DNA from: a virus
IMG/VR virus record: IMGVR_UViG_3300045988_052544
Direction: 5' to 3' (one strand)
Length of the DNA stretch: 12,084 nt
Part shown: positions 30-12,084 of the stretch, one piece after another
Numbering within the stretch: the first letter of the stretch is position 1
Layout: the number at the start of each line of letters is the position of its first letter
Program-made: the position numbers and the translations under genes
The notes under the pieces: model-generated
Database searches by the model: none
The model's input: the letters and a program-made list of their open reading frames with translations, nothing else
Told to the model about the DNA's origin: nothing

Positions 30-51
30 AAAGGTACACAAAACACGCAGA

Positions 52-90
52 TTTAACATTTCCCAACGCATTTTTAACACTTGGCAACAT
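52..90. repeat. Helically phased AACR/AACAY repeats in the ITR (cluster 1)
   Basis: AACA/AACG/AACA/AACA begin at 55, 65, 76 and 86, giving spacings of 10, 11 and 10 bp. They are embedded in TTTAACAYT-like units. Mirrored in the right ITR. Confidence 0.6.
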
Positions 91-140
91 AGTTTGGCAC
101 GGTTTTTGTTGTGTCGCCTGTACCGTACCCTTTATTATTC

Positions 141-168
141 TTTAACACTTTCAACATTTGTCAACACT
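141..168. repeat. Helically phased AACAY repeats in the ITR (cluster 2)
   Basis: tttAACACtttcAACATttgtcAACAC has AACA starts at 144, 153 and 163 (spacings 9 and 10 bp). TTTAACACT at 141..149 is identical to 73..81. Confidence 0.6.
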
Positions 169-189
169 GCTAAATTTTTGCAAAAGAAG

Positions 190-232
190 TGTTTCACGTG
201 GAACAGTAAGGGCAAATGTTTCATGTGAAACA
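190..232. promoter_or_regulatory. Two operator-like palindromes, TGTTTCA-N2-TGAAACA
   Basis: 190..205 is tgtttca-cg-tggaaca (1 mismatch). 217..232 is tgtttca-tg-tgaaaca (perfect 7-bp arms). Centres are 27 bp apart, upstream of the ITR promoter. Confidence 0.5.
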
Positions 233-283
233 AAGTGTTAACAACTATTAAATTAATTCTTTCACACTATTTAACACAAATAA

Positions 284-315
284 TTTGGTGGTTTCGCAAA
301 TTTGCCGTATCTTTG
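284..315 (+). promoter_or_regulatory. Bacteroidota-type promoter (-33 TTTG / -7 TAnnTTTG) inside the left ITR, firing inward
   Basis: TTTG at 284..287, a 20-nt spacer, then TATCTTTG at 308..315. The core TATCTTTGCA is also found at the internal promoter (5091..5100). The first ORF starts about 40 nt downstream. Confidence 0.65.
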
Positions 316-362
316 CACCGTGTTTAAGAAACAATAAGTTTAACAAATTAATTTAGGTAATT

Positions 363-530
363 ATGAACGAAAATTTTAATGAGACTGTTTTTAACTGTAT
401 TACAAGTGTTAACGCTTTGATGACTTCTAACGAAGTTGCAAAAGATGATAAGGCGGTTATTAAGTTGAACCGCTTTAAGAAATGGCTTAACGAATTCGCA
501 GCAGCTAACGGGGTGAACGAAGTAAAGTAA
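363..530 (+). CDS. Hypothetical small early protein, 55 aa (below the ORF-track cutoff)
   Basis: Hand translation gives ATG 363 to TAA 528..530: MNENFNETVFNCITSVNALMTSNEVAKDDKAVIKLNRFKKWLNEFAAANGVNEVK. It is co-oriented with the whole left arm and is the first ORF after the ITR promoter. An in-frame TAG lies at 354..356. Confidence 0.55.
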   Translation: MNENFNETVFNCITSVNALMTSNEVAKDDKAVIKLNRFKKWLNEFAAANGVNEVK

Positions 531-576
531 ATACCCCTTACAGGTAACAAAAGTTTAACGTTAAATATTTTAAGTT

Positions 577-942
577 ATGGCTAAAGGTTTTAGTTTCGCT
601 AGTACTTTTAATAAGACTAGTTTTGACATTGACACAACGGATTTTCCGTATGTGAAATTGGGTGACATCTATAACGACAAGGAAGAGGGCGGCGATGATG
701 TGGTACACCCTATCAACGGTTTGTACGTTCACATTTCAAAGTTGGGCGATTCACCTGTAATTATTGACGCAGAAAGCAAACGCCTTGTCAATTTGCCACA
801 GTTCACAGGTAACACAATTCGTGAAATTTTGGCTAACGAACAAGCGGTTGACGCTATCAAAGCCAATAAGGTAGGTTATACTATTTATGAGTATGAATCG
901 CACGCTAAAAAGTGTTACGGTATTACCTTTGTAGATAAGTAA
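577..942 (+). CDS. Hypothetical early protein, 121 aa; candidate ssDNA-binding protein (phi29 p5-like by size and position only)
   Basis: ORF-track ORF with an ATG start. It lies in the early operon upstream of the TP/DNAP genes and is followed by an attenuator hairpin. Its size is close to phi29 p5 (124 aa). No diagnostic motif was seen. Confidence 0.6.
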   Translation: MAKGFSFASTFNKTSFDIDTTDFPYVKLGDIYNDKEEGGDDVVHPINGLYVHISKLGDSPVIIDAESKRLVNLPQFTGNTIREILANEQAVDAIKANKVGYTIYEYESHAKKCYGITFVDK

Positions 943-971
943 CATATTGTAGTGTAAAGGGTGATAATTTT

Positions 972-1013
972 ACAGGGGTAACAGTAGTTTTATTGTTATC
1001 CCTGTTTTTGTTT
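972..1013 (+). terminator. Intrinsic terminator/attenuator between the small early genes and the TP-DNAP genes
   Basis: Stem acaggggtaaca (972..983) pairs with tgttatccctgt (994..1005), 12 bp with one G-U pair. The loop is 10 nt, followed by ttttgttt. Confidence 0.6.
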
Positions 1014-1033
1014 CATTTAAACTAACAAATAGT

Positions 1034-1663
1034 ATGGCAAATAAAAACCCTATAGGCTTTAGCGGTCGCACGTTTCGGGCAACAAAAAGGGCGCACGTTA
1101 AAAAAGAAATTATAAATGCTGTTGAGAGTAGTCCATCCCTCAGAAAACAAATATCTAAAGTATTCCAACAGGCAAACAGACGTATACAGAATATTGAAAA
1201 AAACAAAGTTGTTTCGCCTGCTGTTGTAGCATTAAATAAAGGTGACGTAAAGGGATTTACAAAATTTTCTATGCGTCACGAATGGAACGATTTAAAAATT
1301 GAATATTCAAAGGCTATTGCGTTTTTGCAGCAACCAACGTCAACGGCAACGGGAACGGATGAGTATGCAAAACACCTAAAGAAAACTTACAAACTTTCAG
1401 ATGATGAGTTTTCTTTGATGCAAGAAAAATTAATCGGTAAGATTGCAAGTGTATCAGACCAAAAATTTTTGGAACAATATTTAATGCAATATAAAGACTT
1501 TACAGGAGAACTTGAACAGGACGCACGGGACGTGTCCGACCAAATAGAAAGTGACGCTGTAAAGATAGCCGACAATTTACAAAACAGTATCAACAACGTA
1601 GGTGAAGTTGCAGAAGAAACCGTGCAAAAGATTTTAGACACTTTTAAAGATTTTGGTTTATAA
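1034..1663 (+). CDS. Candidate terminal protein (replication primer), 209 aa
   Basis: It lies immediately upstream of the protein-primed DNAP, and its stop overlaps the DNAP start (TAATG at 1661..1665), as in the phi29 gene 3 / gene 2 order. The N-terminus is basic (RTFRATKRAHVKKE, QQANRRIQNIEKNK) and the C-terminal third is acidic and helical (ELEQDARDVSDQIESDAVKIADNL). No catalytic motif can confirm the call. Confidence 0.5.
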   Translation: MANKNPIGFSGRTFRATKRAHVKKEIINAVESSPSLRKQISKVFQQANRRIQNIEKNKVVSPAVVALNKGDVKGFTKFSMRHEWNDLKIEYSKAIAFLQQPTSTATGTDEYAKHLKKTYKLSDDEFSLMQEKLIGKIASVSDQKFLEQYLMQYKDFTGELEQDARDVSDQIESDAVKIADNLQNSINNVGEVAEETVQKILDTFKDFGL

Positions 1664-3873
1664 TGAAGAAAATACCCTTTGAACTACATGAAGAAGTTTA
1701 CACCCCGAAAGATATTGCGAAAGTTTTATCTTTGGCGGTAAACGAAAAAAATTTCACAGGAAACAATAAGGGCAATAAATTCTTAAATGTTCCTGTTTCC
1801 TTTGATATTGAAACAACGTCTTTCTACAGGGACGCAGACGGGGAAACCTACAGTTATGAACGTTATATAAAATTAGGCGGTAAAGATACCAAAATGGAAA
1901 AATGTAGTTTAATGTACGTTTGGCAATTTGGTGTAAACGGTTATTGCATAATAGGTCGCACTTGGGACGAATTTTTAGAAATGTTGTCTGAGATAGTACG
2001 TTTGCTAAACTTAAACCCAAAAAGACGTATTATTATATACGTTCACAATTTGGCTTATGAGTTCCAATTTTTGAGGGAGTTGTTACAATGGGAAAAAGTT
2101 TTCTCTATTGATTTACGCAAACCGATTTACGGGATAACTAAAGACGGTTTAGAGTTCCGCTGTAGTTATTTGTTATCGGGTTATTCGTTGGCAAAGTTGG
2201 GTGAACAGTTACACACTTATAAGTGTTCAAAGTTAGTCGGGGATTTAGATTACAGTCTATTGCGTCACAGTCAAACACCGTTAACGAAAAAAGAAGTCGG
2301 TTACTGTTTGAATGATATAAAAGTAGTTATGTGTTACGTACAGGAACTAATAGAACGTTATAAAGGAATAACGAAACTACCTTTAACTAAGACGGGTTTT
2401 GTACGCAAATATTGTCGTTCTGTATGTTTCAAGAAAACAGACGAAGAAACAGGAAAAACAACACCAAACTTTAAGTATTTCGACAAAATACATGATTTAA
2501 ACATAACAGGTACAGGAGAGTTCGAAATGTTGCAGCGTGCTTTTTCGGGTGGTTTTACACATGCAAATGCAAAGTATACAGACGAAGTAATAGAAAATGT
2601 AGATAGTTACGACTTTACAAGTAGTTACCCCTATGTTATGGTTTCCGAAAAGTTCCCGATGAGTACGGGTGTTGTTGTGCCTGTTAAATCAATGAAACAG
2701 TTTGATTTTATGACTAGTAAATTTTGTTGTGTCTTTGATATTGAGATAACAAACATTTTTGCTAAATCAGAGAACGAAAACCCTATATCGGTAAGTAAGT
2801 GTTTCGTAAAAGAAAATGTTTCTGAGAATAACGGGCGGTTGGTTTGTGCAAGTAAAATCTGTATGACAATAACGGAAATAGATTTTAAAGTATTTTCGCA
2901 GTTTTATTCGTGGGAACGTGTACGTATAGGCAAAATGATTTGTTACCGAAAAGAATATTTACCGACTGAGTTTGTTTTGTCGATTTTGCACCTGTACGAA
3001 ATGAAAACCAAATTAAAGGGCGTAAAGGGAAAAGAAGTAGAATATTTGAATAGCAAAGAAATGTTGAATAGTTGTTACGGCATGTGCGTTACAAATCCGT
3101 TACGCGATGAAATTTTATGTGACGGTGAAACATGGGACGTTGAACACCTAACAGGTATGAAACAGTTAGAAATGCTGAACAAATACAATGACAGTAGAAA
3201 CAGGTTTCTTTTTTACCCTTGGGGTATATATGTAACGGCTTATGCTAGACGCAACCTATTTACGGGTATTTCTGAATGTGGAGACGATTACATTTATAGT
3301 GATACCGATTCGGTTAAAATTATGAACGGTGATGCACACAAAGAGTACTTTAAGCTATATAATGAACTAGCACAAAGAAAATTGCGTGCAGCCTGTAAGT
3401 TCCACAAAATACCATTTGAAAAGGTTGAACCCGTCACGATAAAGGGAATAGCGAAACCGCTTGGTGTGTGGGATTACGAAGGACGGTACAGACGTTTTAA
3501 GACTTTAGGTGCAAAGCGTTATATGGTTGAAGAACAAAACGCACTTACCGTTAACGGTGAAAATTACAATTATAGTATGACTGTTTCGGGTGTAAACAAA
3601 AAATCTGCTATCCCCTACATGTTAGAAACATTTGGGGAAAACGGCATATTTGACGCTTTTACTAATTACTTAGACATACCGCCGACGGCAACAGGTAAGA
3701 ATATACACACATATATAGATTACGAACAGACAGGCACAATAAAAGACTACTTAGGCACGGTTTCAAGTTACGACACGGTAACGGGTGTACACTTAGAGCC
3801 AACGGGGTATACTTTGAGCCTATCAGTACTTTATATAAATTATTTAATGGGTATCAGATTAAAGAAAGAATAA
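1663..3873 (+). CDS. Protein-primed family B DNA polymerase (phi29 gp2-like), 736 aa
   Basis: Exo I is FDIETTS, Exo II is HNLAYEFQF and Exo III is YCLNDIKVV. Pol motif A is DFTSSYPYVM, motif B is KEMLNSCYG, motif C is YSDTDSV and the KxY motif is GAKRYM. About 75 aa separate motifs B and C, consistent with a TPR2-type insertion. Confidence 0.95.
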   Translation: MKKIPFELHEEVYTPKDIAKVLSLAVNEKNFTGNNKGNKFLNVPVSFDIETTSFYRDADGETYSYERYIKLGGKDTKMEKCSLMYVWQFGVNGYCIIGRTWDEFLEMLSEIVRLLNLNPKRRIIIYVHNLAYEFQFLRELLQWEKVFSIDLRKPIYGITKDGLEFRCSYLLSGYSLAKLGEQLHTYKCSKLVGDLDYSLLRHSQTPLTKKEVGYCLNDIKVVMCYVQELIERYKGITKLPLTKTGFVRKYCRSVCFKKTDEETGKTTPNFKYFDKIHDLNITGTGEFEMLQRAFSGGFTHANAKYTDEVIENVDSYDFTSSYPYVMVSEKFPMSTGVVVPVKSMKQFDFMTSKFCCVFDIEITNIFAKSENENPISVSKCFVKENVSENNGRLVCASKICMTITEIDFKVFSQFYSWERVRIGKMICYRKEYLPTEFVLSILHLYEMKTKLKGVKGKEVEYLNSKEMLNSCYGMCVTNPLRDEILCDGETWDVEHLTGMKQLEMLNKYNDSRNRFLFYPWGIYVTAYARRNLFTGISECGDDYIYSDTDSVKIMNGDAHKEYFKLYNELAQRKLRAACKFHKIPFEKVEPVTIKGIAKPLGVWDYEGRYRRFKTLGAKRYMVEEQNALTVNGENYNYSMTVSGVNKKSAIPYMLETFGENGIFDAFTNYLDIPPTATGKNIHTYIDYEQTGTIKDYLGTVSSYDTVTGVHLEPTGYTLSLSVLYINYLMGIRLKKE

Positions 3874-3874
3874 T

Positions 3875-5011
3875 ATGAAACAGAAAAAAGAAAAAGTGGA
3901 AACACCGAAATTTTACAGTTTAAACCGTATTTTGGCAAAAAACGCAGATTACAATGTAATTTTCGGTGAACGCTCCAACGGTAAGACTTATGCAACTTTG
4001 TTGTATGGTATCAAAGAATATTTGAAAACAGGTAAACAAATGGCGTATATTAGGCGTTGGCGTGAAGATTTAAGGGGTAAACGTGCAGAAAGTTTGTTTA
4101 GTAATCATGTAGCCAACGGGGTAATACAGGAACTAACAGACGGTAAGTTTAACGAAGTGTTTTACGTATCGGGTAAATGGTTTCTTTCGTCTTATGACCC
4201 CGAAACTAAAAAGCGTGTACCCGATAACACCCCGTTTTGTTTCGGTTTCTGTTTATCAGAACAGGAACACGAAAAATCTAGTAGTTACCCAAATATAACT
4301 ACAGTCGTGTTTGATGAGTTCTTAACTAGACGTTATTATTTGCCTGATGAATTTATGTTATATATGAACCTGTTGAGCACAATAATACGACAACGTAATG
4401 ACGTTAAAGTTTTTATGCTTGGTAACACGGTAAATCAGTTTTGCCCGTACTTTACCGAAATGGGTTTGAAACAGGTTAGAGTAATGGAACAGGGAACTAT
4501 TGATATTTACCGTTTCGGTGAACACGGTGCAACTGTTGCAGTAGAATACTGTAGTACGATTGTTAAACAAAAAGCTAGTAACAAATATTTCTGTTTCGAC
4601 AATGAAAATTTGCAGATGATTACAGGCGGTAAATGGGAACTTGCAGTATATCCACATTTGCCTGTAAAATACAAACCGAATGATGTTTTATTTGTGTTCT
4701 ATATTCAGTTTAACGAAATGACGTTACAGGGTAACGTTATTCAAGTAGACAACGAAAGAGGGGTTAACAATTTTATATATATTCATAATAAAACGACCCC
4801 TATTAAAGATACAGATAATAGTTTGATTTATTCGTTACAGATGAACGGCAAACCAAACTACAAACGAAAGTTACTGAGTACTGCAAGTTATCTTGAGCAA
4901 CAAATAACAAAGTATTTCGCCACCGATAAGGTATTTTATCAGAATAACGAAATAGGCGAAATTGTACGCAATTATTTAATGGCAAGTGCTCGCAGCAACA
5001 TAATTACCTAA
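3875..5011 (+). CDS. DNA encapsidation ATPase (phi29 gp16-like), 378 aa
   Basis: Walker A is GERSNGKTY and Walker B is TTVVFDEF. The N-terminus FYSLNRIL...NVIFGERSNGKTYA...YIRRWREDL parallels phi29 gp16 FYNPQKML...FVIGARGIGKSYA...YVRRYKPEL. EKSSSYPNITTVVFDEFL parallels EKSNAYPNVSTIVFDEFI. Confidence 0.9.
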   Translation: MKQKKEKVETPKFYSLNRILAKNADYNVIFGERSNGKTYATLLYGIKEYLKTGKQMAYIRRWREDLRGKRAESLFSNHVANGVIQELTDGKFNEVFYVSGKWFLSSYDPETKKRVPDNTPFCFGFCLSEQEHEKSSSYPNITTVVFDEFLTRRYYLPDEFMLYMNLLSTIIRQRNDVKVFMLGNTVNQFCPYFTEMGLKQVRVMEQGTIDIYRFGEHGATVAVEYCSTIVKQKASNKYFCFDNENLQMITGGKWELAVYPHLPVKYKPNDVLFVFYIQFNEMTLQGNVIQVDNERGVNNFIYIHNKTTPIKDTDNSLIYSLQMNGKPNYKRKLLSTASYLEQQITKYFATDKVFYQNNEIGEIVRNYLMASARSNIIT

Positions 5012-5019
5012 TATCTGTT

Positions 5020-5066
5020 AACAGGGGTTAAAAATGTTTTACGTGAAACACTTTTCCCCTGTTTTA
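5020..5066 (+). terminator. Intrinsic terminator ending the left (replication/packaging) operon
   Basis: aacagggg (5020..5027) pairs with cccctgtt (5056..5063), with further internal pairing, followed by a T-rich tract. The loop holds the third TGTTT(T/C)A-N2-TGAAACA palindrome. Confidence 0.6.
5035..5050. promoter_or_regulatory. Operator-like palindrome (third locus) upstream of the internal promoter
   Basis: tgtttta-cg-tgaaaca has 1 mismatch to the ITR sites. Its centre is about 25 bp upstream of the -33 box at 5067. Confidence 0.5.
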
Positions 5067-5098
5067 TTTGGTGATACCAAATAAAAGTATTATCTTTG
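5067..5098 (+). promoter_or_regulatory. Internal Bacteroidota-type promoter for the structural (late) operon
   Basis: TTTG at 5067..5070, a 20-nt spacer, then TATCTTTG at 5091..5098. The geometry and the -7 core match the ITR promoter. ATG 5131 follows. Confidence 0.65.
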
Positions 5099-5130
5099 CA
5101 TCATAAAATAACAAAGTTAAATTTTGCTAT

Positions 5131-5325
5131 ATGGATTTAAACGCTATTGTATCACTAGTTAGTAACGTGGGTTTTCCTGTTGCCGTGTGCATTGCCCTGT
5201 TTTGCTATATGGAGAAACAGAATGAACGACATCAACAGGAAACCGACAAGTTAAATGAAACCGTACAAAGTAACACGAAAGTGTTAACAGAACTTTGTAC
5301 CTTAATTAAAACACTTGTTAAATAA
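5131..5325 (+). CDS. Small single-pass membrane protein, 64 aa; holin-like topology (possibly YvrJ-like)
   Basis: The N-terminal hydrophobic segment IVSLVSNVGFPVAVCIALFCY is followed by a charged helical tail (EKQNERHQQETDKLNE). The stop overlaps the portal start (TAATG). The function is inferred only. Confidence 0.55.
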   Translation: MDLNAIVSLVSNVGFPVAVCIALFCYMEKQNERHQQETDKLNETVQSNTKVLTELCTLIKTLVK

Positions 5326-6317
5326 TGGAGAAAGAAAACTTATATAACAGGTATCAAACAGAAGTTAAAAACAAAGATACTGCATTATTCACATTTATGC
5401 AACGTACTTTGTGCATGACTTCAAAAATGTTTGAGTATACGGGTACACCCGAAACGTTACCGCCTATAGAACTTGAAAAGATTCTGCAAACATCGGGAAA
5501 CGTGGGTATAGCAGAAGTGAACGGTAATTTATACGCACTACAGGGTTCACGGGGTGGAGAATGTGACGCTTACGGGTACGGCAAAGATTACGTGGTTGCA
5601 AACCCTTGGCTACAGTTGAACAAAACCTTTAAAATTGGTTCTGATATTGTCGTTATCAACAACACACCGTTTGCAGATTCAATTTTACCTATTATTGGAA
5701 AATACGGTGTTCTTTACGTTGACGCAACAATAACGCTTAATATGACTAGTATTCTAACTAGAATTTTAATGCTTATTTCTGCAAGTGATGACAAAACCAA
5801 ACAAAGTGCCGAAATGTTTCTGCAAAAGGTTTTAAACGGGGATTTCTCAGTAATTGGCGAAAATGCCTTTTTTAAAGGTGTTAACATGCAAACCCCCCCA
5901 ACAAACAGTAACCAACAGATAACGCAACTTATTGAGTTATTGCAGTATTACAAAGCGTCAATGTTTAACGACCTTGGTTTGAACGCAAACTATAACATGA
6001 AACGTGAACGTTTAAATACGCAAGAGGTTTCAATGAATATAGACGCTTTAATGCCTTTCGTTGATTCAATGTTAAAGGAACGTGTAGACGGTGTGCAAAA
6101 GGTTAACGAAATGTTCGGTACAGAGATTTCCGTAACGCTTGGTTCTAGTTGGAAAATTGAGCACGAAAACTATTTGTCGCTATTACAGGCAACAGAGGAC
6201 GGACACGACCACACCGATACAGAAGACATCGACCCCGTACAGGAAAACGAAACAGAAGAAACAGAAGAAACAGAAGAAACAGAAGAAACAGAAGAAACAG
6301 AAGAAAAAAGAAGATGA
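5325..6317 (+). CDS. Portal / head-tail connector (phi29 gp10-like), 330 aa, with an acidic (TEE)6 C-terminal tail
   Basis: [29 protein letters not shown] parallels phi29 gp10 [44 protein letters not shown]...[12 protein letters not shown] parallels NLEKKERMVTDEVSSN...KINELYGLNVKV. Confidence 0.85.
   Translation: [330 protein letters not shown]
6249..6302 (+). repeat. Perfect 9-bp tandem repeat (gaaacagaa) x6 inside the portal gene
   Basis: Six head-to-tail copies lie at 6249..6302 and encode (TEE)6. They stay in frame at any copy number. Confidence 0.95.
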
Positions 6318-6883
6318 AAATAAATGAACTTTTCACGGGTGAAAATGGTTTGTTTGAAAAAATCTTTAAACCCCTTTTCCCTGTTTTGTATGATTCAATA
6401 TTTGAGGCTGATGACCCAAAAATTATAGATATTGATTTTCGGTTCAAATACGGGGACAGAACTCTAGTTAACGCTATTACAAACGAAACTGCAAATGATA
6501 TTGTAAAAGGTATTATTACGGTAAAGTTTGATGAATGGCAAAAACAGATTCAAGTATTTAAAAAAGAATATGACGTGTTAGACCCTGTTACAGAAAAGAC
6601 AACGGAAACGGTAAATAACACCGTGGACGAAACAGGGAATAATAACACGGTCGATTCAAGTGTAACATTTAATAATGGAGATTTCGGAAATGACACAAAA
6701 CAGCAGCGAGATTCCACAGGGAACAGACAAGAAACAGGCACGAAAACAACTGTTAAAAACGGTGTTCCGTCTAGCGTTCTTACTAGCGAAATTATTCAAA
6801 AAGAAATGAGTTTACGCAAAACTAATTTCAGAACGCAAGTTATAACAGAACTTGCAAAAGAGTTAACAGTAGATATTTATTAA
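6314..6883 (+). CDS. Hypothetical virion protein, 189 aa; candidate lower collar/adaptor or scaffold
   Basis: It overlaps the portal stop by ATGA (6314..6317) and sits between the portal and capsid genes. The central T/N/G/D-rich segment (TEKTTETVNNTVDETGNNNTVDSSVTFNNGDFGNDTK) is flanked by helical ends. There is no diagnostic motif. Confidence 0.6.
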   Translation: MKINELFTGENGLFEKIFKPLFPVLYDSIFEADDPKIIDIDFRFKYGDRTLVNAITNETANDIVKGIITVKFDEWQKQIQVFKKEYDVLDPVTEKTTETVNNTVDETGNNNTVDSSVTFNNGDFGNDTKQQRDSTGNRQETGTKTTVKNGVPSSVLTSEIIQKEMSLRKTNFRTQVITELAKELTVDIY

Positions 6884-6901
6884 TACTTAATTTTTATAAA
6901 A

Positions 6902-8086
6902 ATGGAAGTAAAACAGATTTTTAATTTAGTTAACACCGTATCGGGTGAAGTATTGGGCAAAACTGATTTGGTACATGAAGACTTAACGGGCTTGGTTGAC
7001 CTTGGCACGGAAGTGTTCAACCAAAACGCAGTCGACAATTATGTTAAATCCCTTGTAAACCATATCGGCAAAGTGGTTTTCGTAAACCGTCCTTACAGTG
7101 GTAAAGTTCCTTCTGTTCTCATGGACGCTTGGGAGTTCGGTTCAGTATTGGAGAAAATTTCTGCTGACGTTCCAAACGCAGAAGAGAATGACACATGGAA
7201 CTTACAGGACGGCAAGGAATACAAACAGGACGTTTTCCATAAACCGACTGTTTCCGCTAAGTTCTTCAACTCTAAGGTAACTTTTGAGGTGCCCGTATCT
7301 ATCACGGAAAGACAGGTTAAAGAGTCTTTCAGTAGTGCTGAACAAATGAACGGCTTTTTGTCAATGATTTATTCAGCAGTTGACAAGTCGATGACTATCA
7401 AGACGGACGCACTTATTATGCGTACTATCTGCAACATGGTAGCCGAAACTTTGGACGCAGATAAAACCGATTTCGGTTTCGTACCGTCTACACACGAAAC
7501 AGTCGACTACACTGCTGCTAGTACTGTGCGATGTGTAAATCTGTTGAAACTTTACAAAGACAAGACGGGTGCACAGTTGACCCCTGCAACCGCTATCACA
7601 ACACCCGACTTTATCCGTTTTGCGGCATATATCATGGGTTTGTACTCAGACCGTTTGCAGACCATTTCGACCCTGTTTAACGTTGGCGGTAAGGAACGTT
7701 TCACACCGAAAGATATTTTGCACACTGTTTTGTTGTCGGATTTCGCTTCTGCTGCAAAAACGTATTTGTACGCTGATACTTACCATAACGACAACGTTTT
7801 GTTACCACAGGCTGAAACGGTTGCAAGTTGGCAAGCAACAGGCAAAGATTACGCCTTTGAGAACACTTCAAAGATTGACGTGAAGAGTGCAAGCGGCGCA
7901 AGCGTTTCTATTGGTGGTGTATTGGGTGTTATGTTCGACCGTGACGCTTTGGGTGTAACAAACCTTGATAAGCGAGTAACAACCAACTACAACGCAAAGG
8001 CAGAGTTCTTCAATAACTACTTCAAGTTTGATGCTGGTTACTTCAACGACACAAACGAAAACTTTGTTGTGTTCTTTGTTGCCTAA
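6902..8086 (+). CDS. Major capsid protein (phi29 gp8-like), 394 aa
   Basis: NAVDNYVKSLVNHIGKVVFVNR parallels phi29 gp8 [22 protein letters not shown]. The gene lies after the portal and is followed by a strong terminator, typical of a highly expressed capsid gene. Confidence 0.85.
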   Translation: MEVKQIFNLVNTVSGEVLGKTDLVHEDLTGLVDLGTEVFNQNAVDNYVKSLVNHIGKVVFVNRPYSGKVPSVLMDAWEFGSVLEKISADVPNAEENDTWNLQDGKEYKQDVFHKPTVSAKFFNSKVTFEVPVSITERQVKESFSSAEQMNGFLSMIYSAVDKSMTIKTDALIMRTICNMVAETLDADKTDFGFVPSTHETVDYTAASTVRCVNLLKLYKDKTGAQLTPATAITTPDFIRFAAYIMGLYSDRLQTISTLFNVGGKERFTPKDILHTVLLSDFASAAKTYLYADTYHNDNVLLPQAETVASWQATGKDYAFENTSKIDVKSASGASVSIGGVLGVMFDRDALGVTNLDKRVTTNYNAKAEFFNNYFKFDAGYFNDTNENFVVFFVA

Positions 8087-8105
8087 GTTTTGTTGTTTAA
8101 CTGTT

Positions 8106-8148
8106 GGGTGTGTTTCCTGTAGTTGATAGCACAGGGACACACCCTTTT
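8106..8148 (+). terminator. Intrinsic terminator/attenuator just after the capsid gene
   Basis: gggtgtgtttcctgt (8106..8120) pairs with acagggacacaccc (8131..8144), 14 bp with one bulge and one G-U pair. The loop is 10 nt, followed by tttt at 8145..8148. Confidence 0.65.
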
Positions 8149-8160
8149 AAATTTAGTGGT

Positions 8161-8598
8161 ATGCTGATAAAAACTTATAATTATAATGGAGAACCTAACA
8201 GGGTTAGCAAAACACTCCAGGAAAACGAAGAGTATACGGGTGTATTAAATTCAACTGTAAACGTATTAGAGCCTGTTATCCGTTTTCGTACACGCAACGT
8301 TGTCACGTTTAATTACGTTTATATCGAAAGTTTGAAACGTTATTATTTCGTGTCGGAAATACGACAAGACGGTGATGTTTGCACGGTTTATTTGCGTACT
8401 GATGTTTTAATGACGTACAAAGATAAAATCTTAGATTCTACAGGAACGTTAACAAAGGGTGCAACGGTTAACGGGTATGCGTCAAACCGTTCAAATACTT
8501 ACGATTTGCGCCCTAAACTCAAAAAGCTAGATTTCCCAAACAAAGGGTTATTTAACGATAGTGATAACATTATAATGGTAACTATTAAAGGCAATTAG
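8161..8598 (+). CDS. Tail protein resembling the N-terminal domain of the phi29 gp9 tail knob, 146 aa from ATG 8161
   Basis: NYVYIESLKRYYFVSEIRQDGDVCTVYLRTDVLMTYKDKI parallels phi29 gp9 [45 protein letters not shown]. The ORF-track start at 8104 is a TTG inside the terminator hairpin, so ATG 8161 is preferred. The gene ends in the only TAG stop among the called genes. Confidence 0.65.
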   Translation: MLIKTYNYNGEPNRVSKTLQENEEYTGVLNSTVNVLEPVIRFRTRNVVTFNYVYIESLKRYYFVSEIRQDGDVCTVYLRTDVLMTYKDKILDSTGTLTKGATVNGYASNRSNTYDLRPKLKKLDFPNKGLFNDSDNIIMVTIKGN

Positions 8599-8600
8599 TT

Positions 8601-10448
8601 ATGAGTATAGCGATAAAGAAATTTAACCTGTACGGTGCAACGGCTAATTTAAAAATACAGGGTTTAGACGTTATTTGTACTTTTACGCTAAATACAAATA
8701 CCGTTTGGAACGGTGAACCGTTTACACTTGAATTCGTAGATAACGATAGCAGTTTTCACAACAAAACCGTAACAGTTGAAACTGTAAAAGATAGTACAGA
8801 AGTAATAACAAAAAAGGTTGCGTACAGTTACGCAAGTATGAGTGTTAGCGTTATCGGTTATTCTACAACTTACAACGGTGAACAACTTACTTTAGGCAAT
8901 TTGGTTAATAAAGTCCCACACAGTACGTTAGAACAAATGTATACGGGTGTAAATAGTGATGACGGAAAAAGCGCCTACAGTAGAATAACGTTAAAAGCCG
9001 ATGATGGTTTTAAATTTGTTAACGGTACATTAAAAAACGATATTAATTACGGTTTCGATTATTATTATGATGATAGTGTAGCGCAACAAATTGTTGGTAC
9101 ACCATTAAATAATTTAAATATAGGTTGGGAGTTTACAGGTGAAACGGTTGCAAAAGGAACTGAGATACAAAATAATATAACTGGTAATTGTGAAGAAACA
9201 CACACTATAAACGGTACAAACGTTTCTATAACTATTACGGGTAATAGTGATGCAGCAAAGTTTGTTGGGGTTTCTGTAGAATATACAGACGTTAACGGGG
9301 AAACAAAAACAGTTGTACCCGATTTTACGGGCAACGTTATAAATATCTCTTTAACTGATGTAAAAAAAGGTACAACGGTTATTTTGTCAGGTGCTTACCG
9401 TTTGGTATGTAACACGGTTAATTCTATGACAGGTTGCACCGTAACAGGGTTAAAAGATTATTATATAGAAAACGAAACCGTTAGCGTAATTGCAACGGCT
9501 AGTGGAAAAACTCATTTTGACGCGGCAAATTTGCCTTTGGCTAAATGGGAAATGCTTATCGGTGGAACAGAAGAATACGAATTTACTTTGAGTAACAAAG
9601 GCAAAACGGCAACATTAAATTTTACGTTTCCTAACGACAAAGAAAAAGTTAGTGATTCCACATTTACTTTGTTAGGTGGTACAGTTCCCGACACAGAAAT
9701 AACGGGCTATGGTAGTATTAATGTTTATTTGGTCGACACAAAGACTTTAGAGGATTTTTCAAAAATTCGTTTCACTAAAAAGTTAAATGAAAGTTATGAA
9801 TATGAATACTATGACATCGGGGACTATGTGAACAGGTTACACAAAGTTTATGTAAATGTGCCTAACATTTCGCCTACATCTTTAAAGTTGGCTAACTTTG
9901 ATACAAGTATCACAACAAATAGTGTAGATGATTCTAAAGTACATGTAGATTTCGGTAACGTACTGTTACCTGTTGTTTCGGATAATAGCAACGACTTTAA
10001 CGCTACAATACAATGTTTTATCCCGTTTGTCGGTTTTGTCCCTGTAGATAGTGACTTTATAGGAAAAGAAATAAATCTTAGTTATGATGTAGATTTAGTT
10101 ACAGGATATTGTGCCTATAACTTATTTTGTGACGGTATCACTATTAATAACGGTACGGCAAATTGTAGCAGTGAAATTATTTACAAAACGTTGGCAAATG
10201 ACGAAATAAGCACGGTTGGAGACTTGAGCGACCTTAATACGGTTTTAATGGGTCTTGAACCTTTTATTACTATTAAGTACTTCGACCCTTTAAACGTTCC
10301 TGTTAACAACACGACAGAACAAAAACGTATCGGGGACGTTACAGGGTTTGCACAATTTGAAAACGTTGACTTATCAACAACTAACAGTATGTTAGTTGAT
10401 GAATTTAATGAGATTGTTTCACAACTTGGAAACGGTGTTTATCTATAA
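8601..10448 (+). CDS. Tail knob C-terminal homolog with a large beta-rich N-terminal extension; probable receptor-binding tail protein, 615 aa
   Basis: The C-terminal ~170 aa resemble phi29 gp9. [30 protein letters not shown] parallels [62 protein letters not shown] parallels [34 protein letters not shown]. The N-terminal ~440 aa look like several beta-sandwich modules. Confidence 0.65.
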   Translation: [615 protein letters not shown]

Positions 10449-10451
10449 AAT

Positions 10452-10486
10452 AAAACAGGCGGTAAATATGTTACCGCCTGTTTTTT
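10452..10486. terminator. Bidirectional intrinsic terminator between the convergent operons
   Basis: acaggcggtaa (10455..10465) pairs with ttaccgcctgt (10471..10481) around a 5-nt loop. An A-run lies on the left and a T-run on the right. Confidence 0.8.
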
Positions 10487-10731
10487 CATTTCTTGTAAAA
10501 ATCATTTAATAACCCTTTGTTATTAAGATAAGTTATTAATTTATCCCGTTCTGTTTTATAAATTTGAGCGGTCAACTCTAGAGCGTCAATATATTTTATA
10601 TTTGCCTGTAGAGTGTCAGCACATGAAGAAGTTAACAAACTAGTTTCGCCGCCTGTATTATTTGCTACAACGTTCAAACTTTTTATTGTTATAGCCAACG
10701 AACCTTTTAAAATTTCAAAATTTTCTTTCAT
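10486..10731 (-). CDS. Hypothetical protein, 81 aa, translationally coupled to the endolysin
   Basis: Its start overlaps the endolysin stop by ATGA (10728..10731, minus strand). It looks helical. No transmembrane segment, signal peptide or convincing lipobox was seen. Confidence 0.55.
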   Translation of the reverse strand: MKENFEILKGSLAITIKSLNVVANNTGGETSLLTSSCADTLQANIKYIDALELTAQIYKTERDKLITYLNNKGLLNDFYKK

Positions 10732-11150
10732 TTCTTTTCTAGATTCATTATAATTTGGTTGCGTGGTTTCCCGTTACGATTGCAAACTGAAACGTGATAC
10801 CAAAAAGACGTTGACCCCTTACGGTGTTCTTTTATAAGTTGGTCAAAACCGCCTGTTTCCCTCAGAACCTTTTCTAAAGTTTCCATATCACTACAAACAA
10901 TATCAGCCGCCAAACCTTTTAAGTGTTGACTATTAGCCACACCGCCAACGGCTTTGTTTAACATCGGACATCGAAAACCGCTATTTACTAATATAGGTTT
11001 ACCCAACTTTTCACGTATCTTGTCTAAGTAATCGGCTAAACGGTTTAAGTTGTCGACTACTTCAAATGTAGGCATATTGTCTATACCTAAACGCTTTGCG
11101 GTTGCTGAATTGATGAACTCAGACAATGTAAAATACTTAATTCTTTTCAT
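10728..11150 (-). CDS. Endolysin, zinc peptidase of the Peptidase_M15_3 (M15A) family, 140 aa
   Basis: FTLSEFINSATAKRLGIDNMP...SGFRCPMLNKAVGGVANSQHLKGLAADI...WYHVSV matches the family signature (SxHxxGxAxD plus a downstream His as zinc ligands). Confidence 0.9.
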   Translation of the reverse strand: MKRIKYFTLSEFINSATAKRLGIDNMPTFEVVDNLNRLADYLDKIREKLGKPILVNSGFRCPMLNKAVGGVANSQHLKGLAADIVCSDMETLEKVLRETGGFDQLIKEHRKGSTSFWYHVSVCNRNGKPRNQIIMNLEKK

Positions 11151-11154
11151 ATCA

Positions 11155-11349
11155 TTATTTAGTTGAAACTACAAACCATTTTCTACTCTCTTTGTGTGTC
11201 GGAAAACGTCCCTTTACAGTTACCGAACTATCACCCTGTAAGTAATCGATTTTGTTATTAAAGAACTCGCTTACTTTGTCAGAACGTACCATATAACACA
11301 CTTCTTTACTAGCCTGTTTTAATGTGACTTTGAAATAACTATGTTCCAT
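11155..11349 (-). CDS. Hypothetical protein, 64 aa
   Basis: ATG-started ORF co-oriented with the right-arm operon, lying 4 nt from the endolysin start. No recognisable motif. Confidence 0.5.
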   Translation of the reverse strand: MEHSYFKVTLKQASKEVCYMVRSDKVSEFFNNKIDYLQGDSSVTVKGRFPTHKESRKWFVVSTK

Positions 11350-11365
11350 ATAATAAATAATTTGT

Positions 11366-11389
11366 GCCTGTAGCTTTTATACTACAGGC
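11366..11389 (-). terminator. Hairpin (weak attenuator) between the first and second right-arm genes
   Basis: gcctgtag (11366..11373) pairs with ctacaggc (11382..11389) around an 8-nt loop. The downstream minus-strand sequence is A/T-rich but has no clean U-tract. Confidence 0.35.
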
Positions 11390-11397
11390 GGTTAAAC

Positions 11398-11724
11398 TTA
11401 TGCTATTCTTTCACTTGTTTGTATCAACTGCAAAAACGAACTTGCATCTTTTCCCAACTTGTTACAAAGTTGTGTAACACAGCACCCATATTCATTAATG
11501 TAGTTCAAACTATCTTTTGATTCAAAGATAGTATACACGTCTTTAGTTAACTTTGGCAAACTGTTGTGTTTAATACAGTTAACTTCGTACTCATACATAA
11601 CTTTTGCAACATCTGCAAAAACACCTGTAACTACTTGCGTGTTACGTGTTGTTTCACTCTTTACTCTAACACCTTTAACAGATATAACTGTTTCGAACTC
11701 AAATGTAATTTTATACTTTGCCAT
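11398..11724 (-). CDS. Hypothetical protein, 108 aa, first gene of the right-arm operon; possible C-terminal helix-turn-helix
   Basis: ATG-started ORF downstream of the right ITR promoter. The C-terminal VTQLCNKLGKDASSFLQLIQ has a helix-turn-helix-like pattern. This is weak and from inspection only. Confidence 0.55.
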   Translation of the reverse strand: MAKYKITFEFETVISVKGVRVKSETTRNTQVVTGVFADVAKVMYEYEVNCIKHNSLPKLTKDVYTIFESKDSLNYINEYGCCVTQLCNKLGKDASSFLQLIQTSERIA

Positions 11725-11769
11725 AATTTTGTATTTTAAAGGGTTTAACTTTGTTTCTTAATCACGGTG

Positions 11770-11801
11770 CAAAGATACGGCAAATTTGCGAAACCACCAA
11801 G
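11770..11801 (-). promoter_or_regulatory. Right ITR promoter firing inward (minus strand)
   Basis: This is the mirror of 284..315. caaagata at 11770..11777 is TATCTTTG on the minus strand. The -33 box reads CTTG instead of TTTG because of the ITR mismatch at 11801. Confidence 0.6.
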
Positions 11802-11852
11802 TTATTTGTGTTAAATAGTGTGAAAATATTAATTTAATAGTTGTTAACACTT

Positions 11853-11895
11853 TGTTTCACATGAAACATTTGCCCTTACTGTTCCACGTGAAACA
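11853..11895. promoter_or_regulatory. Two operator-like palindromes (right ITR copies)
   Basis: 11853..11868 is tgtttca-ca-tgaaaca and 11880..11895 is tgttcca-cg-tgaaaca. They mirror 217..232 and 190..205. Confidence 0.5.
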
Positions 11896-12055
11896 CTTCT
11901 TTTGCAAAAATTTAGCAGTGTTGACAAATGTTGAAAGTGTTAAAGAATAATAAAGGGTACGGTACAGGCGACACAACAAAAACCGTGCCAAACTATGTTG
12001 CCAAGTGTTAAAAATGCGTTGGGAAATGTTAAATCTGCGTGTTTTGTGTACCTTT

Positions 12056-12084
12056 AGATCGGAAGAGCACACGTCTGAACTCCA
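12056..12084. other. Illumina TruSeq adapter read-through (technical)
   Basis: agatcggaagagcacacgtctgaactcca is the start of AGATCGGAAGAGCACACGTCTGAACTCCAGTCAC. Confidence 0.97.

Follow-up and report, generated by a model that had tools for sequence, protein, structure and literature searches.

Five copies of a 16-nt palindrome on the linear genome of a phi29-like phage are, judged by their match to the universal consensus, chromosomal-type parS centromere sites, very probably bound by the ParB protein of the bacterial host, which would be by far the simplest binder. On balance we lean towards the fuller reading, in which orphan parS on the phage recruits host ParB and the phage DNA would be segregated or positioned like the origin region of the host, and we give segregation or positioning of the phage genome an even chance of being the main function of the sites.

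The window analysed here, that is, the whole 12,084-nt stretch of IMG/VR record IMGVR_UViG_3300045988_052544, holds a linear phage genome in full, 12,026 bp between physical ends at positions 30 and 12055 (Table 1). Because sequencing adapter stands at both contig ends, the assembly must have reached the physical ends of the linear genome. The terminal inverted repeat (ITR) measures 334 nt with adapter and 305 nt as phage sequence, and the genome start, AAAGGTACAC, resembles the phi29 terminal AAAGTA and fits protein-primed sliding-back initiation. Polymerase, Gp16 ATPase, connector, capsid protein and ITRs are all present, and the phage is phi29-like. Its closest cultured phages are those of the Astrithrvirus group, with DNA identity of 65-70% over small parts of the genome. 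The promoters are of the Bacteroidota type, no Shine-Dalgarno sequences were found at the start codons of the window, and a 12,148-bp faecal phi29-like genome described in a review was predicted to infect Bacteroidales. From the promoter type, the missing Shine-Dalgarno sites and the review's prediction for this similar faecal phage, we infer that the host is a non-sporulating member of the Bacteroidales.

Table 1. Features of the window and their coordinates (position 1 is the first letter of the 12,084-nt stretch).
Feature	Coordinates	Strand	Remarks
Illumina TruSeq adapter (…AGATCGGAAGAGCACACGTCTGAACTCCA + reverse complement)	1-29 and 12056-12084		both contig ends
Left ITR	30..334	.	
parS site, left ITR, distal, TGTTTCACGTGGAACA	190..205	.	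reverse complement TGTTCCACGTGAAACA is a perfect TGTTNCACGTGAAACA match
parS site, left ITR, promoter-proximal, TGTTTCATGTGAAACA	217..232	.	one consensus mismatch
Left ITR promoter, Bacteroidota type, TTTG-N20-TATCTTTG	284..315	+	conserved in relatives
Protein-primed family-B polymerase	1663-3873		Pfam DNA_pol_B_2
Gp16 packaging ATPase	3875-5011		Pfam Podovirus_Gp16
Intrinsic terminator, left (early) operon	5020..5069	+	-19.1 kcal/mol, z -2.6
Central parS site, TGTTTTACGTGAAACA	5035..5050	.	one consensus mismatch
Central promoter, structural operon, TTTG-N20-TATCTTTG	5067..5098	+	conserved in relatives
phi29-type connector	5325-6317		Pfam Phage_connector
phi29-type major capsid protein	6902-8086		Pfam Phi29_MCP
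M15 endolysin	10728-11150	minus	
Right ITR	11751..12055	.	
Right ITR promoter, mirror copy, CTTG instead of TTTG at -33	11770..11801	-	read from sequence
parS site, right ITR, mirror of 217..232	11853..11868	.	one consensus mismatch
parS site, right ITR, mirror of 190..205, TGTTCCACGTGAAACA	11880..11895	.	perfect consensus

Two further repeats were seen in the window. A 9-nt tandem repeat, GAAACAGAA (7 copies, 6240-6311), gives the connector protein an acidic C-terminal tail, (ETE)n. The ITRs hold the heptamer TYAACAY, seven times per 305-nt ITR (window 53-277 and its mirror 11808-12032); 14 of its 24 genome copies lie in the ITRs, six of the seven per ITR share one orientation, and the ITRs of relatives have it too. 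This repeat, distinct from parS, may serve as an origin element or as an element for a DNA-binding protein.

A first-pass annotation of this DNA had reported the palindrome TGTTTCA-N2-TGAAACA at five places, and all five positions proved correct. The motif in that form is exact only at 217..232 and 11853..11868, whereas the copies at 190, 11880 and 5035 each depart from it by one mismatch. Because four of the five are ITR mirror copies of one another, only three sites are independent. The excess over chance is nevertheless large: with up to two mismatches allowed, the palindrome has 5 matches in the whole window against 0.25 expected, a number reached by none of 200 shuffles, and the parS consensus with at most one mismatch has 3 sites in the non-redundant part (30..11750) and 0 in each of 200 shuffles. 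As the annotation had claimed, the sites lie upstream of all three promoters. They are in non-coding DNA only, and no gene holds a full site, so that the outcome named there as a refutation, a palindrome as common within genes as chance predicts, did not occur. The heptamer half-site occurs 17 times in the whole window against about 4.1 expected, and nine of these occurrences, mostly in the polymerase gene, are the isolated half-sites outside the full ones that it had also described.

Chromosomal parS, at which ParB/Spo0J loads, has the conserved sequence TGTTNCACGTGAAACA (PMC7022226), and the window sites differ from it by one mismatch at most (Table 1). Its perfectly palindromic form, TGTTTCACGTGAAACA, was found in at least 120 bacterial stretches (one genome per species) from many phyla. 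In the stretches listed, the copies are often several and clustered, even in GC-rich Streptomyces, and 42 of the 120 have a parB gene (GERRxRA box) within the same 8 kb; none of the 120 listed stretches with the 16-mer encodes a relative of the window phage. In a Prevotella genome, two perfect sites adjoin gidA/mnmG in intergenic DNA, and a Hi-C study of 12 gut bacteria, including Bacteroides caecimuris, reported ParABS homologues and ori-proximal clusters of consensus parS in all of them (PMC10197239). The same parS is thus in use in the Bacteroidales, the group to which the host of the window phage would belong. No ParB domain was found among the 15 window proteins scanned against Pfam. A search of the searchable literature found no earlier report of parS on gut or Bacteroidales phages, and a review of phi29-like phages does not mention parS.

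Searching IMG/VR with the ATPase brought up 319 relatives, of which we analysed 80 whose ATPases are 93-100% identical. The first-pass annotation had proposed conservation near promoters in relatives as a check, and the sites do occupy the same places in these 80 genomes: nearly every relative has 1-5 copies of the motif per ITR plus one about 27 nt after the ATPase stop codon, and genomes carry 3-9 sites each. With up to two mismatches allowed, the ITRs and the central position together account for 400 sites in 81 genomes, compared with only 11 at other places, and 218 of the 400 are perfect TGTTNCACGTGAAACA matches. Conservation centres on the 16-mer, which in 226 distinct ITR-site contexts has an information content of 1.82 bits per position, compared with 0.35 in the 20-nt flanks. 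Position 12 is the one variable inner position in these contexts (G in 186, A in 40), the other inner positions being at least 91% invariant, and it corresponds to the N of the parS consensus read on the other strand. The spacers between ITR copies have lengths of 27-29 or 35-39 nt and freely differing sequences, and the copies themselves vary in number.

Two departures from this pattern were observed among the relatives. In three of them a single-base indel hits the central parS (L002 at ~5038, L003 at ~4925 and L031 at ~4950), while the terminator and the ITR sites are intact; either these are assembly errors or the central site is dispensable. In ten others (L015, L020, L022, L025, L040, L041, L046, L054, L055 and L060) a near-parS sequence, TGTTGCAAGTGAAACA, with 1-2 mismatches lies in a variable tail gene at ~8900-9660; the tail gene of the window is without it. 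Either it arose by coincidence from the coding sequence or it is an additional weak site.

The central site, which in most relatives is the perfect palindrome TGTTTCACGTGAAACA, is embedded in a terminator. The first-pass annotation was right to assign it to the terminator of the early operon; it forms the apical stem of the hairpin (5020..5063), however, and not its loop. In the window an outer stem, AACAGGGG/CCCCTGTT, is followed inwards by the parS palindrome as apical stem, and the hairpin by a T-run. RNAalifold on a MAFFT alignment of the central regions gave the inner stem only, indels misaligning the outer one, and the sequences were then folded singly; an outer stem encloses the 16-mer in 71 of the 71 distinct central-region sequences. 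This outer stem comes in compensatory variants (AACAGGGG/CCCCTGTT, AACGGGGG/CCCCCGTT and GACAGGG/CCCTGTT), whereas the 16-mer retains its sequence. Selection thus acts on pairing in the outer stem and on the sequence itself in the 16-mer, as is characteristic of a site bound by a protein. Strongly conserved and sequence-specific, the palindrome fits the earlier suggestion that it is a site for a dimeric DNA-binding protein.

Two other terminator-like structures were noted. A strong hairpin of 15 pairs with a T-run (972-1005, plus strand) stands within the early operon, between the gene for a 121-aa protein and the putative terminal-protein gene, directly followed by an isolated TGTTTCA half-site (1009-1015); it may be an attenuator setting the ratio of upstream to downstream early genes. 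A perfect 14-pair bidirectional terminator (10452-10484) separates the convergent structural and right-end operons and is analogous to TD1 of phi29.

Host-type parS on a phi29-like phage has a precedent in phi29 itself, which, according to a passage in a later article, has five parS sites and undergoes segregation into the prespore dependent on host Spo0J (Meijer et al. 2005, in PMC2731898). In the phi29 record NC_011048 we found four perfect TGTTTCACGTGGAACA sites, the same 16-mer as the ITR form of the window. One of them (17243-17258) starts directly after the stop of gene 16, the ATPase gene, at 17242 and beside TD1, so that both genomes, despite their differing gene order, have one parS directly after the packaging ATPase gene and beside a terminator. 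The two phages also have in common a protein-primed polymerase, a Gp16 ATPase and a phi29-type capsid protein, and both carry several copies of the host parS 16-mer and no ParB of their own. In contrast to the window, where all sites are non-coding and promoter-upstream, those of phi29 lie mostly inside genes and in the right half of the genome; the ITR of phi29 is only 6 bp long, whereas the window has tandem parS arrays in its 305-bp ITRs together with the one central site. Since the inferred Bacteroidales host does not sporulate, entrapment in spores cannot be the pay-off here. A link to Spo0A boxes as in phi29 was also considered and dropped: two boxes (TGTCGAA) occur in the window against 1.7 expected, both inside genes and none at promoters.

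Within two mismatches, no parS was found in the cultured phi29-like phages Cp-1, 44AHJD, asccphi28 and GA-1, nor in Astrid, Phanie and K58 g2, which are the closest relatives in culture. Carriage of parS is therefore lineage-specific and inessential to the lifestyle. In IMG/VR the 16-mer was found in at least 120 viral stretches, many of them with several copies, compared with 39 matches, all single-copy, for the matched control palindrome TGTTTCAGCTGAAACA. Core proteins of the phi29 type are encoded by 23 of the 120 parS stretches listed, some of which hold 4-6 sites, and by none of the 39 controls; the 16-mer also occurs in unrelated viral contigs. Five distant phi29-like contigs (L210, L224, L251, L298 and L310, with polymerases 23-36% identical) have 4-6 parS each with at most one mismatch, spread along the genome and several of them at gene boundaries. 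Carriage of host parS may thus be common in several phi29-like lineages. Another distant relative, L304 (polymerase 44% and capsid protein 59% identical to the window), has a promoter of the sigma-70 type, Shine-Dalgarno sites and one perfect parS per ITR. The site therefore travels across host types, as fits the site of a universal host protein rather than a private operator.

A generalisation that we regard as possible, though on the doubtful side, is the following: a whole clade of virulent 12-kb protein-primed phages of non-sporulating gut Bacteroidales would keep orphan host parS arrays on its ITRs and ride the ParABS/SMC machinery as a plasmid-like carrier state, and, given that 23 of the 120 listed parS stretches are phi29-like, host parS would be widespread, and unrecognised, in several phi29-like lineages.

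The mechanism that we propose runs as follows. Once the phage DNA has been injected, and as it replicates, dimers of host ParB would nucleate at the central site and at both sites of either ITR, where they would bind CTP, shut as clamps and travel along the 12-kb genome. The resulting partition complex would couple the phage DNA to the ParA/SMC segregation machinery of the host, and the phage genome would, with lysis delayed, be positioned and inherited like an origin-proximal piece of the host chromosome. In vitro, free ends allow ParB clamps to escape from the DNA, and their retention on a linear genome of 12 kb would need the terminal proteins as roadblocks. Segregation or persistence as the pay-off is speculative. 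Segregation alone, moreover, does not explain why the sites adjoin promoters; because every site stands 25-125 bp upstream of one, loading of ParB may also modulate transcription.

Three operons each stand behind one of the three promoters, of which the left and the central one match the host consensus and the right copy is off by one base at -33. With TTTG at 284-287 and CTTG at 11798-11801, the promoters at the two ends may be of unequal strength in this isolate. The site at 217..232 has its centre 59.5 nt upstream of the -33 box, and the centre of the internal site lies 24.5 nt from the TTTG at 5067, in agreement with the approximately 25 bp given by the first-pass annotation. Across all relatives the latter distance is 22.5-25.5 nt, and the centre of the proximal ITR site is ~60 nt from the -33 box in most relatives and ~79 nt in a minority. 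Site-promoter distances are thus kept, yet they are unequal between promoters (24.5 nt at the central one, ~60 nt in the ITRs), and no site overlaps a -33 or -7 box.

One alternative is a mainly transcriptional role, in which host ParB spreading from the sites would dampen or time phage transcription and lysis would be deferred in ParB-rich cells; in effect this is the switch of the first-pass annotation, with a host protein in the part of the regulator. We hold this to be rather unlikely. It would account for sites that are promoter-upstream without exception, at conserved distances and in non-coding DNA only, where those of phi29 are mostly intragenic, and in some systems ParB-family proteins are known to silence nearby genes (P1 ParB, F SopB, KorB, and S. 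pneumoniae ParB at com). However, the core promoter elements are left free, the left and central promoters already fit the host consensus, and chromosomal ParB hardly affects transcription in B. subtilis. As nearly all non-coding DNA in this genome is promoter-upstream, the placement may only reflect where the 16-mer is tolerated; and because an identical site precedes early and late promoters, a ParB site cannot alone make a temporal switch.

A second possibility is that the sites act as a sponge, hundreds of replicating phage genomes titrating ParB away from the host origin and so disturbing segregation, SMC loading or replication control to the advantage of the phage. The density of sites (3-9 per 12 kb, compared with 1-22 per bacterial chromosome) speaks for this, tandem arrays of variable copy number would fit selection on dosage, and the sites, being perfect or near-perfect, are probably of high affinity. 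Nevertheless, arrays could equally aid robust loading on a short linear DNA, a fast lytic phage would gain little from disturbed segregation, and the studied precedent, phi29, is described in the passage cited above as using parS to segregate its own genome (PMC2731898). We therefore judge titration to be quite unlikely as an explanation.

The first-pass annotation had instead read the palindrome as a phage-specific operator, by which a dimeric regulator encoded by the phage, the 55-, 64- or 108-aa protein, would repress the ITR promoters and activate the structural promoter. The palindrome is indeed conserved and promoter-upstream, the 55-aa protein is present in 80 of 80 relatives (median identity 96%) and the 64-aa protein in 74 of 80, and the central site is centred ~60 nt before the point where transcription would start, a distance at which activators classically bind. 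But a private operator would have to coincide with parS at 15-16 of 16 positions, the degenerate one included, and the 16-mer is the universal parS, present also in phi29 and L304. In L304 the motif is unchanged despite the other promoter type, and tblastn of the 55-, 64- and 108-aa proteins gave no match there at E <= 1e-5. Nor does anything point to opposite effects on early and late promoters, since the same site precedes both and overlaps no core promoter. Taken together, these observations make a phage-encoded regulator very improbable in our view.

The individual candidates fare no better. The 108-aa protein was found in 35 of 80 relatives; L010, L030 and L064 lack its gene while keeping every site, and a helix-turn-helix that we had considered by eye at its C-terminus was dropped on account of these relatives. 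Homologue searches with the 55- and 64-aa proteins brought up only near-identical proteins without a name, all of this phage family and on contigs no longer than about 12 kb. AlphaFold predicts a plain helical hairpin for the former (pLDDT 87) and a small alpha/beta domain for the latter (pLDDT 82); in these models no DNA-binding fold or family is recognisable, and Foldseek against the PDB returned nothing better than E = 0.6. Neither Pfam nor PHROGs had a match to the 55-, 121-, 108-, 64- and 81-aa proteins, and PDB sequence searches of the candidate binders gave nothing beyond a weak hint for the 121-aa protein, and no p4-like protein. A novel DNA-binding fold or a very divergent binder could possibly exist among the phage proteins.

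The 108-aa gene (11398-11724, minus strand), the first of the right-end operon, occupies an accessory slot, which in the relatives compared (L010, L030, L064, L077 and L080) is either without the gene or filled by unrelated proteins of 100-109 aa, and L047 and L060 have an extra 64-aa gene inserted. The weak hint for the 121-aa protein (577-942, plus strand) is a match to the S1/OB domain of archaeal Rpo7 (E = 0.3); the protein may be the single-stranded-DNA-binding protein of the phage.

Lastly, a purely structural palindrome with no protein partner, acting as RNA in the terminator or as a hairpin in displaced single-stranded DNA, is barely credible and was rejected after the single-sequence folding: although the central copy belongs to a real terminator hairpin and some of its variants keep G-U pairing (T at position 6 in the window, G at position 12), it is the outer stem that varies with compensation while the 16-mer stays fixed, the ITR copies, lying upstream of outward-facing ends and promoters, are not expected to be transcribed, and sequence identity with parS across phyla would be left unexplained.

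The reading we prefer, orphan parS recruiting host ParB, has parallels in several known systems. Chromosomal ParABS centromeres (TGTTNCACGTGAAACA near oriC) share the 16-bp palindrome, the degenerate position and the clustering of copies, whereas here it is a linear viral genome of 12 kb, without parAB genes, that carries them, at an approximately thousandfold higher site density. The linear phage-plasmid N15 has dispersed sopC-like centromeres, some of them near promoters; it is temperate and encodes its own SopAB, in contrast to the window phage, which is without lysogeny or plasmid-maintenance genes. SGI1, a mobile element with an orphan centromere, is described as hijacking the parABS of IncC plasmids (PMC10954446), a plasmid system and not a chromosomal one. 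In such elements and, by this reading, in the window phage, a site in cis is enough to reach a partition machine encoded elsewhere.

The operators of phi29 p4, to which the first-pass annotation had likened the logic of its switch, are, like the window sites, inverted repeats near the early and late promoters of a phi29-like phage. According to the phi29 annotation, however, p4 is phage-encoded, and its phage-specific sites stand between divergent promoters, where they overlap elements of the early ones, unlike the window site, which is a host-type parS and overlaps no promoter element. With the presence of such parS already known from phi29, the tandem ITR arrays, the exclusively promoter-upstream placement and the presumably non-sporulating host are the notable differences of the present case.

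For annotation, these results call for caution, as a conserved promoter-upstream palindrome on a phage need not be a phage operator. The ITRs would also offer a natural compact parS array, capped by terminal protein, for the study of ParB clamps on linear DNA. For strictly lytic gut phages, parS suggests a testable route to persistence beside their hosts, in which the phage genome would be tethered, positioned or silenced by host ParB. If true, the phi29/Spo0J paradigm would extend beyond spore formers.
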